From an uncultured Dehalococcoidia bacterium (GTDB taxonomy: Bacteria; Chloroflexota; Dehalococcoidia; Lucifugimonadales; GCA-2712585): a stretch of DNA of 64,000 bases. A program made the translations under genes and the position numbers. The stretch spans positions 29,078-93,077 of the forward strand of contig CAYQLZ010000001.1 of NCBI GenBank assembly GCA_964418665.1, given 5' to 3'. This document shows, piece by piece, positions 34,323 to 34,841 of the stretch (position 1 is its first letter; the number at the start of each line of letters is the position of its first letter). The notes under the pieces were generated by a model. It had not been told where the DNA came from, ran no database searches, and was given only the letters and a program-made list of their open reading frames with translations.

Positions 34323-34841
34323 TCAGAATTCGAAGCTCTCGCCGTTGAGGGTGAGGGTGTCCTTGAAGGGGATTGGCTTGGCGATCATCTGGCGGGCCCA
34401 GCATCCCCTGCGGGCGTTTCTCAGGATGGACTTGATGGTCTCGGGGTCGGCGTCGGATTCGATGACGAAGTCGGTTTCCACGCTGGAGGCGCCAGCGTCG
34501 ATGGTCTCGGCGAGTACGGAGCCGGTCATGGTCAGGTTTAGCTTGATATAGCCCTTGACGTTGGTTATCTCGACTTTTTTGAATTGCGCGTACCGCGCAA
34601 TCTGGGTCATCTCTCAGAACAGTACGGCCATAGCGAAGTAGTGGAGGGGCGCTGGGGCCACGTCCAGGCCGCCGAGACCAGCTGGTTCGTCGCAGATAAT
34701 CTCCCAGCGGCCGCAGTTGCCCCGCTTCAGCTGGTCCTCCACCACCTCGGCGGTGGCCTCCACGGAGGCGAGTCGGACGGGTCCGCGAACGCCAACCATT
34801 GGATCGTATTCAACGTAGTCCTTCGGGTCCTTGATGACCAT
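34323..34841 (-). CDS. OsmC/Ohr-family peroxiredoxin-like protein, probable selenoprotein (TGA 34616-34614 read as Sec)
   Basis: Track ORFs 34614..34841 and 34323..34610 are in one frame, separated only by TGA-GAG. The joined 172-aa product reads ...CDEPAGLGGLDVAPAPLHYFAMAVLF-U-EMTQIARYAQFKK...RRGCWARQ. The TGA falls at the position where, from memory of OsmC/Ohr alignments, the first catalytic Cys sits. AAGGAG RBS precedes ATG 34841. Confidence 0.7.
34583..34601 (-). promoter_or_regulatory. SECIS-like stem-loop downstream of the in-frame UGA
   Basis: Minus-strand RNA reads UGA-gagaugacccag-AUUGCGCG-GUA-CGCGCAAU. This is a perfect 8-bp stem (or 7 bp with a GGUAC loop) starting 12 nt after the UGA. 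Confidence 0.6.

Follow-up and report, generated by a model that had tools for sequence, protein, structure and literature searches.

An open reading frame pair in a SAR202-type Dehalococcoidia genome very probably encodes a single OsmC-related selenoprotein of a known family

OsmC-like proteins were described as a new selenoprotein family in the 2005 study of the Sargasso Sea selenoproteome by Zhang, Fomenko and Gladyshev, which presented 3 sequences assigned to COG1765, a UXXT motif, and a figure of the selenocysteine (Sec) insertion sequence (SECIS) element (PMC1088965), and the family is listed in the prokaryotic selenoproteome reviews of 2022 (PMC9312934) and 2026 (PMC13188914) and is included in BSepDB. 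A dedicated NCBIfam model, NF041052 'OsmC_like_Se', exists for it. Here, we analyzed a 64,000-nucleotide stretch of DNA from an uncultured Dehalococcoidia bacterium (contig CAYQLZ010000001.1, positions 29,078 to 93,077; hereafter the window, with positions counted from its first letter), in which an earlier note, made from the sequence alone, had read 2 adjacent minus-strand open reading frames (ORFs) as one Sec-containing OsmC-like enzyme split by ORF calling. That note had also mentioned OsmC-like selenoproteins from marine surveys; this was correct, the source being the Sargasso Sea report with its UXXT motif (PMC1088965). Judging from the sequence and its relatives, the ORF pair is very probably a single gene; its product would be an OsmC-related selenoprotein of 172 residues that belongs to the COG1765/YhfA-like branch of the OsmC superfamily. 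The gene is an ordinary member of a known family, and the finding as such is already known.

Compared to the described OsmC-like selenoproteins, the locus has the same Pfam family (PF02566), Sec position, UxxT motif (here U-E-M-T) and marine origin, with a SECIS element immediately downstream that carries a G in a small apical loop. It differs in nothing essential and represents a Dehalococcoidia (SAR202-type) ortholog group that is almost always stored as fragments. The Cys-form OsmC-like proteins (3cje, 2opl, 2onf, which is Ta0195, and 9wo1, a tandem protein of about 400 amino acids) share with it the fold family as assigned by sequence, the CxxTQ start of the helix and a second Cys in GC[FWY], whereas they encode Cys (TGC/TGT) at the site, need no recoding hairpin, have an equivalent RNA that is unfolded, and show an identity of only about 27-38%. 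The Ohr/OsmC reductases (E. coli OsmC, Xylella and Pseudomonas Ohr, and 1vla) belong to the same superfamily, and their first Cys, at the N-terminus of a long helix after P-x-P-L, corresponds to Sec76. Ohr/OsmC proteins have a second, resolving Cys near the C-terminus and a catalytic Glu that lies in an NPEE motif. The OsmC fold is an intertwined dimer built of alpha/beta subunits. They are nonetheless distant (1vla, E 0.024), and the protein described here differs by its unconserved NPEE Glu and by an N-terminal extension of about 45 residues. The hairpin, in turn, resembles the E. coli fdhF-type SECIS in being a coding-region stem-loop that directly follows the UGA, bears G-U in its apical loop and has a spacing within 16-37 nt, but it is shorter and simpler, with a single 8-bp stem, a 3-nt loop and no bulged U.

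The 2 ORFs, 34614..34841 (75 amino acids) and 34323..34610 (95 amino acids), lie on the minus strand in a common frame, with just the TGA at 34616-34614 and a GAG codon at 34613-34611 between them. Joined, they read MVIK...AMAVLF*EMTQIARYAQF...RRGCWARQMI...ESFEF*, so that the arrangement of 2 halves in one frame, 172 amino acids in all, is as the earlier note had described it. The elements of the locus are the following.

34323..34841, minus strand: coding sequence of the putative OsmC-related selenoprotein, 172 codons with Sec predicted at codon 76, and the terminal TGA 34325-34323 besides
34847..34852, minus strand: Shine-Dalgarno sequence AAGGAG, 5 nt upstream of the start ATG 34841-34839
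34614..34616, minus strand: in-frame UGA, predicted to be read as Sec (U76), which opens the UxxT (U-E-M-T) redox motif
34583..34601, minus strand: SECIS-type hairpin, with 5' arm 34601-34594, loop GUA 34593-34591 and 3' arm 34590-34583
34401..34403, minus strand: TGC codon of Cys147 (G-C-W), at the second conserved Cys position of the OsmC fold, presumed resolving thiol
34323..34325, minus strand: terminal UGA stop in the context UUCUGAG, the same as that of the Sec codon

The AAGGAG at 34852-34847 is the sole ribosome-binding site for the whole 172-codon frame, and A/GGAG is kept upstream of the start ATG in 16 related loci. No Shine-Dalgarno sequence was found upstream of the ATG at 34610 (the sequence before this ATG is gtactgttctgagag), in agreement with the earlier claim that only the upstream half has a good ribosome-binding site. 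The recoded UGA (34611-34619) and the real stop (34320-34328) are embedded in the identical minus-strand heptanucleotide UUCUGAG; thus, the local context cannot tell the recoded from the terminating codon, and only the downstream hairpin differs. When the sequence after the terminal UGA (34325-34323) was read by eye, no SECIS-type hairpin was seen, the only hairpin there being a 4-bp CCCC/GGGG stem with the loop UUGAU and no G in loop positions 1-2. This reading complements a scan of the window by SECIS criteria, which took TGAs followed by at least 25 in-frame codons and possibly left the terminal UGA outside its range.

To assign the joined protein to a family, we wrote Sec as Cys in the database and profile searches. 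The NCBIfam model NF041052.1, 'OsmC-related (seleno)protein', was matched with 150.9 bits (E 2.1e-44; curated cutoff 95), and the match runs the full length of the model (residues 26-167 on profile positions 3-144 of 144). The Pfam OsmC family PF02566 bridges the stop, covering residues 60-160 with 44.5 bits (E 2.2e-11; gathering threshold 27.5), and with the separate halves it stays below threshold, the C-terminal half reaching 25.8 bits and the N-terminal half giving no match. The family profile also matched the PDB entries 3cje (OsmC-like protein, E 2.9e-18), 2opl, 2onf, 9wo1 and 1vla (T. maritima OsmC), and the UxxT motif that marks membership is present as U-E-M-T at residues 76-79. These matches support the earlier reading of a Sec-containing OsmC-like enzyme divided by ORF calling. 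The combination of features is far beyond chance because Pfam OsmC crosses the stop, the TGA is invariant in the relatives, and the hairpin covaries. Database clusters of the subfamily go by the names 'hypothetical protein' and 'uncharacterized OsmC-like protein', with one wrongly labelled 'type II secretory pathway component PulJ'.

The TGA is unchanged across 24 assemblies, namely the window, 16 genome loci and 7 metagenome loci. In the 16 loci from different Dehalococcoidia genome species (62-95% identity), codon 76 is TGA and the frame is intact on either side; the 7 distant metagenome loci (33-47% identity) have TGA in the same alignment column, followed by EMTQ or, in one of them (L023), by LLTH. 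Across these 24 sequences, the stop in the codon 76 column is always TGA and never TAA or TAG. The nearest relative of the window is CBDBNU010000003.1 (locus L001, 95% identity), and the ortholog is also carried by the complete chromosomes OX638324.1, OZ250180.1, OY762063.1, OZ253467.1 and OY282371.1. Both halves of the gene are under strong constraint, with ratios of nonsynonymous to synonymous substitution rates (dN/dS) between the window and its relatives of 0.02-0.16 at a dS of 0.4 to more than 1, which excludes a pseudogene or a read error. The split form dominates the databases. In a first search of 5.8 billion proteins, 18 of 20 matches were the exact C-terminal half (94-97 amino acids) and one was the N-terminal half, and in the profile search 57 of the 59 database clusters fell short of the length of the joined protein, most having 86-104 amino acids. 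No close Cys-containing ortholog was found among the 5.8 billion proteins.

We then considered what stands in the TGA column elsewhere in the superfamily. The column is occupied by Cys in the alignments with all 5 PDB entries (3cje, 2opl, 2onf, 9wo1 and 1vla), and Cys147, in GCW, is nearly invariant and aligns with the second Cys of 3cje and 2onf. An exhaustive profile search of 1.84 billion representatives, with an alignment of the halves and 2 full-length homologs as the query, returned 1613 relatives. Among the 25 full-length representatives that were aligned, 24 have CxxTQ at the TGA column and all 24 keep the second Cys, while in the sole exception, P0185, Ser stands in place of the first Cys and Ala in place of the second. 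Halves also make up about 25 of the best 150 representatives of this search, indicating that split Sec forms are present in several sub-clades. A word-based search yielded 2 full-length homologs, of which P0055 has Cys (C-L-L-T) and keeps the second Cys, and P0028 has Ser, with Ala for the second Cys. The earlier note had called for a check that the TGA falls in a Cys column and had placed a second Cys near the C-terminus; the 5 structures, P0055 and 24 of the 25 representatives bear out the first point, and the alignment of C147 with the second Cys of 3cje and of the full-length homologs bears out the other. The 2 Ser forms, P0028 (locus L025, 459-983) and P0185, are unrelated homologs, and both have Ala at the second-Cys column. 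Loss thus affects the first and second redox positions jointly, which is what a Sec/Cys-Cys couple would lead one to expect. Another residue, Cys50 of the CDEP motif, was considered as specific to the Sec forms and was rejected, since about half of the Cys-form homologs have Cys there too and the rest have Ser, Thr or Ala.

The hairpin, AUUGCGCG-GUA-CGCGCAAU, has a perfect 8-bp stem that begins 12 nt after the UGA, and its loop lies 20 nt after the UGA; it is found at 34601-34583 just as the earlier note had drawn it, with an RNAfold centroid energy of -11.8 kcal/mol. In the published bacterial SECIS model, a loop of 3-9 nt sits on a stem of 4-16 bp and has a G in positions 1-2, the distance from UGA to loop is 16-37 nt, and the minimum free energy is -7.5 kcal/mol or lower (PMC13188914). 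With a 3-nt GUA loop, an 8-bp stem, a spacing of 20 nt and -11.8 kcal/mol, the hairpin lies within all 4 constraints, and its description as SECIS-like in the earlier note is thereby upheld. In 16 close sequences, codons 81-87 (ATT GCG CGG TAC GCG CAR TTC) have a synonymous-codon entropy of 0.16 bit, compared to a gene average of about 1 bit; this is the gene-wide minimum, and it coincides exactly with the hairpin. Distant Sec forms have an altered stem sequence and retain the pairing in the same register, with variants such as UUGAGCG/CGCUCAA, UUCAGCG/CGCUGAA, UUGAGAG/CUCUCAA, UGGGAG/CUCCCA and GUCGC/GCGGC. Overall, 94.1% of the cells are paired versus 17-57% with slid partners, compensatory changes on both sides occur at 4 of the 8 pairs, the observed covariation score was reached by none of 500 shuffles, and all 19 distinct sequences share the loop residues G24, U25 and A26. 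Where the UGA is absent, the structure is absent as well: the Ser form at L025 retains the peptide EMTQIARYA unchanged with other synonymous codons (ATC GCT CGA TAC GCC) that leave 2 of the 8 pairs, and the Cys form at L026 has 5 of the 8 pairs, non-contiguous, in a segment that does not fold. On this comparative evidence, selection maintains the hairpin as an RNA element, and its occurrence goes together with that of the UGA.

As to the genetic code and the lineage, TGA ends 21 of the 54 long ORFs of the window, this gene's own end included, indicating that the code is standard. The window is a segment of SAR202-type Dehalococcoidia, with 61% G+C, 4 Amidohydro_2 paralogs, an Mrp antiporter and PrkA, among others. 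Selenoproteins of Chloroflexi were counted as early as 2006 (PMC1794560), and sponge-symbiont bins from several phyla show an enrichment of SelA and SelB (PMC5649159). BSepDB, which takes in only species with a Sec pathway, places 2 Dehalococcoidia metagenome-assembled genomes (MAGs), with 49 and 46 selenoprotein genes, among the 10 richest bacteria (PMC13326102).

These observations suggest a decoding scheme in which translation would begin at ATG 34841, behind the sole Shine-Dalgarno sequence, and the UGA at codon 76 would be decoded as Sec, with the hairpin at 34601-34583 acting as a bacterial SECIS element that would bring SelB with GTP and Sec-tRNA(Sec) to the ribosome. The second UGA (34325-34323), in the same UUCUGAG context and without a qualifying hairpin, would lead to termination. 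Actual Sec insertion and its dependence on SelB are what we infer for this locus. In the protein, Sec76 would occupy the helix-N-terminal site of the reactive (peroxidatic) Cys of OsmC/Ohr and Cys147 that of the resolving Cys. By analogy with these enzymes, the protein most likely reduces a hydroperoxide or other oxidant through a selenenic acid and then an Se-S bond with Cys147. Both the peroxidase chemistry and the substrate we infer by this comparison, and peroxidase activity is likewise attributed by analogy to the COG1765/YhfA-like branch, which has no established substrate.

Several observations weigh against this interpretation. The catalytic Glu of Ohr/OsmC is unconserved, the residue 9 positions before Sec being H, Q, E, A, P or others, so that the peroxidase chemistry is by analogy only. 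Taken alone, the hairpin is modestly unusual, with a z of -1.8 relative to shuffled sequences (8 of 200 shuffles fold as well), and an equally perfect 8-bp hairpin occurs within 22 nt of 11 of the 1759 TGA triplets of the window; being mildly unusual by itself, it leaves the case to rest on comparative evidence. In that comparison, the stem is invariant in the close clade, the covariation is carried by about 6 distant sequences or lineages, the structure comes from a member of the same alignment, and the stem of one relative (L002) contains a G-to-A mismatch. No Rfam family was matched in the window at gathering thresholds, Rfam being without a general bacterial SECIS model for the family. As for the decoding machinery, ARAGORN found no tRNA of any kind in the 64-kb window or in 17 related loci, and no selA, selB or selD was found in the window (Pfam, 59 ORFs) or in about 320 kb of related flanks (phmmer). 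The phmmer probes were E. coli SelA, SelB and SelD sequences, and the targets were all ORFs of the window and of loci L001-L017. The missing sel genes in the window and flanks are uninformative, because such genes normally lie elsewhere.

Among the alternatives, the one that survives best is read-through of the UGA without selenium, giving a full-length non-selenoprotein either by hairpin-stimulated near-cognate or suppressor decoding (for example, as Trp or Cys) or by insertion of Cys through the Sec pathway when selenium is scarce. In some systems, Cys is inserted at Sec codons through thiophosphate under selenium limitation, and this alternative would also agree with the lack of Sec machinery in the window and flanks. 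We nevertheless regard it as improbable, since the hairpin fits the SelB-type SECIS consensus with an invariant G-U in the apical loop and a fixed spacing, the family is curated as a selenoprotein (NF041052), the site is a redox-active Cys column, as in essentially all selenoproteins (PMC13188914), and Dehalococcoidia MAGs are rich in selenoproteins and were chosen for BSepDB as possessing the Sec pathway (PMC13326102).

Even less credit is due to a split, two-subunit protein, in which the 75-residue N-terminal fragment and a 95-residue C-terminal fragment, made from ATG 34610 by re-initiation or translational coupling, would assemble an OsmC-like fold without the first catalytic residue. Such a protein would account for an ATG that follows the stop by 3 nt and is invariant in the close clade, and nearly all database entries do call the C-terminal half as a separate protein; however, ATG 34610 is without a Shine-Dalgarno sequence, the split relative L023 reads U-L-L-T and hence, with the Met absent, has no nearby start, and the stop falls exactly on the catalytic Cys column and is always TGA in the 24 sequences. 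Re-initiation also does not predict a hairpin that covaries and vanishes where the TGA is replaced by TCC or TGC. Uninterrupted Cys forms have Met78 as well (CVMTQ in 3cje), and by this alignment the 'second start codon' of the gene callers is a structural residue. We therefore consider a split protein very improbable.

The weakest alternative, a TGC/TGT Cys codon mutated to TGA in a pseudogene or misread by sequencing or assembly, has a real precedent in the same window (the Amidohydro_2 ORF 14465..15733, with TGA where all orthologs have Trp) and is nevertheless of negligible probability, being already refuted by the comparative data: a TGA at this site in 24 assemblies that come from various projects and sequencing technologies, which also settles the earlier note's concern over an error at 34614-34616, both halves under purifying constraint with near-saturated synonymous sites, and no close Cys ortholog in the protein database searched.

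The Amidohydro_2 case came from a window-wide selenoprotein scan that combined coding potential on both sides of a TGA with SECIS criteria and returned only the OsmC-related gene and the Amidohydro_2 ORF at 15410. The latter (14465-15733, plus strand; TGA 15410-15412) was rejected as a selenoprotein, since all of its orthologs (58-91% identity, 374-375 amino acids) are uninterrupted and have Trp at that position (SAENDIGWVPHF). A weak SECIS-like hairpin follows this TGA, with a 7-bp stem, the loop GAGC and -8.2 kcal/mol. By comparison with the orthologs, the TGA is explained by a nonsense change from TGG to TGA (pseudogene) or by a read error and is not a Sec codon, and it serves as a negative control for the selenoprotein finding. 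Same-frame ORF pairs at 29876 and 61167 were likewise rejected, as they are adjacent separate genes or wrong-strand ORFs.

Two further sets of features lie next to the gene or elsewhere in the window.

34891..35301, minus strand: VOC/glyoxalase-family gene (PF00903), directly upstream of the selenoprotein gene with a gap of 49 nt
34229-34315, 9198, 27260, 42436, 48963, 49016, 50676-51022 and 54001: sites of a repeat resembling repetitive extragenic palindromic (REP) elements

The adjacency of the VOC/glyoxalase and selenoprotein genes is kept in 11 related genomes (L001-L011), and the 2 genes are probably co-transcribed. A sigma-70-like promoter match at 35365-35337 (minus strand) is weak evidence, and no intrinsic terminator was predicted after the selenoprotein gene. 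A glyoxalase gene also adjoins the distant homolog at L022. About 1.6 kb away, in conserved synteny, lies a gene for a Fur-family regulator (36483-36941, minus strand), for which the best NCBIfam match is Fur, followed by weaker PerR, Irr and Zur matches; a link to peroxide sensing is possible.

The REP-like palindrome, TCCCCATCRAGGGGGAAGG, has 13 copies in the window (with at most 3 mismatches) compared to 0.08 expected, and these are mostly intergenic. Two to 3 copies occupy the spacer directly after the selenoprotein stop, and 4 cluster in 50676-51022, within an ORF without a Pfam match. Elsewhere in the window, the minus-strand ORF 59965..61164, which is Arg-rich in translation and has no family match, is probably spurious; opposite it, one would expect the beta subunit of a 2-oxoacid:ferredoxin oxidoreductase, the alpha subunit of which is encoded at 58772-59989 (plus strand) and ends at 59989.

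One broader reading, which we regard as doubtful, is that the OsmC-related enzyme exists in this Dehalococcoidia/SAR202 lineage only in its Sec form; it is suggested because the protein database holds no close Cys ortholog and because the only relatives to have lost Sec carry Ser in its place and lack the second Cys as well. If so, the Ser-form relatives would be non-catalytic derivatives and Sec would be functionally irreplaceable, and the enzyme, its gene being in a conserved pair with that for the VOC/glyoxalase, may have as its substrate an oxidant or electrophile specific to the lineage, as opposed to generic peroxides. The locus raises no new question for the field. It does offer a clean teaching example, with 2 UGAs in UUCUGAG of which one would be recoded and the other terminates, and with a Ser-form control that has the same peptide and a decayed SECIS. 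Its main value is the correction of an annotation, as gene callers yield 2 'hypothetical proteins', neither of which reaches the Pfam threshold. Read correctly, the gene would give a SAR202-type Dehalococcoidia genome one more selenium-dependent redox enzyme, in line with recent reports that rank selenoproteomes of this class among the largest in bacteria.

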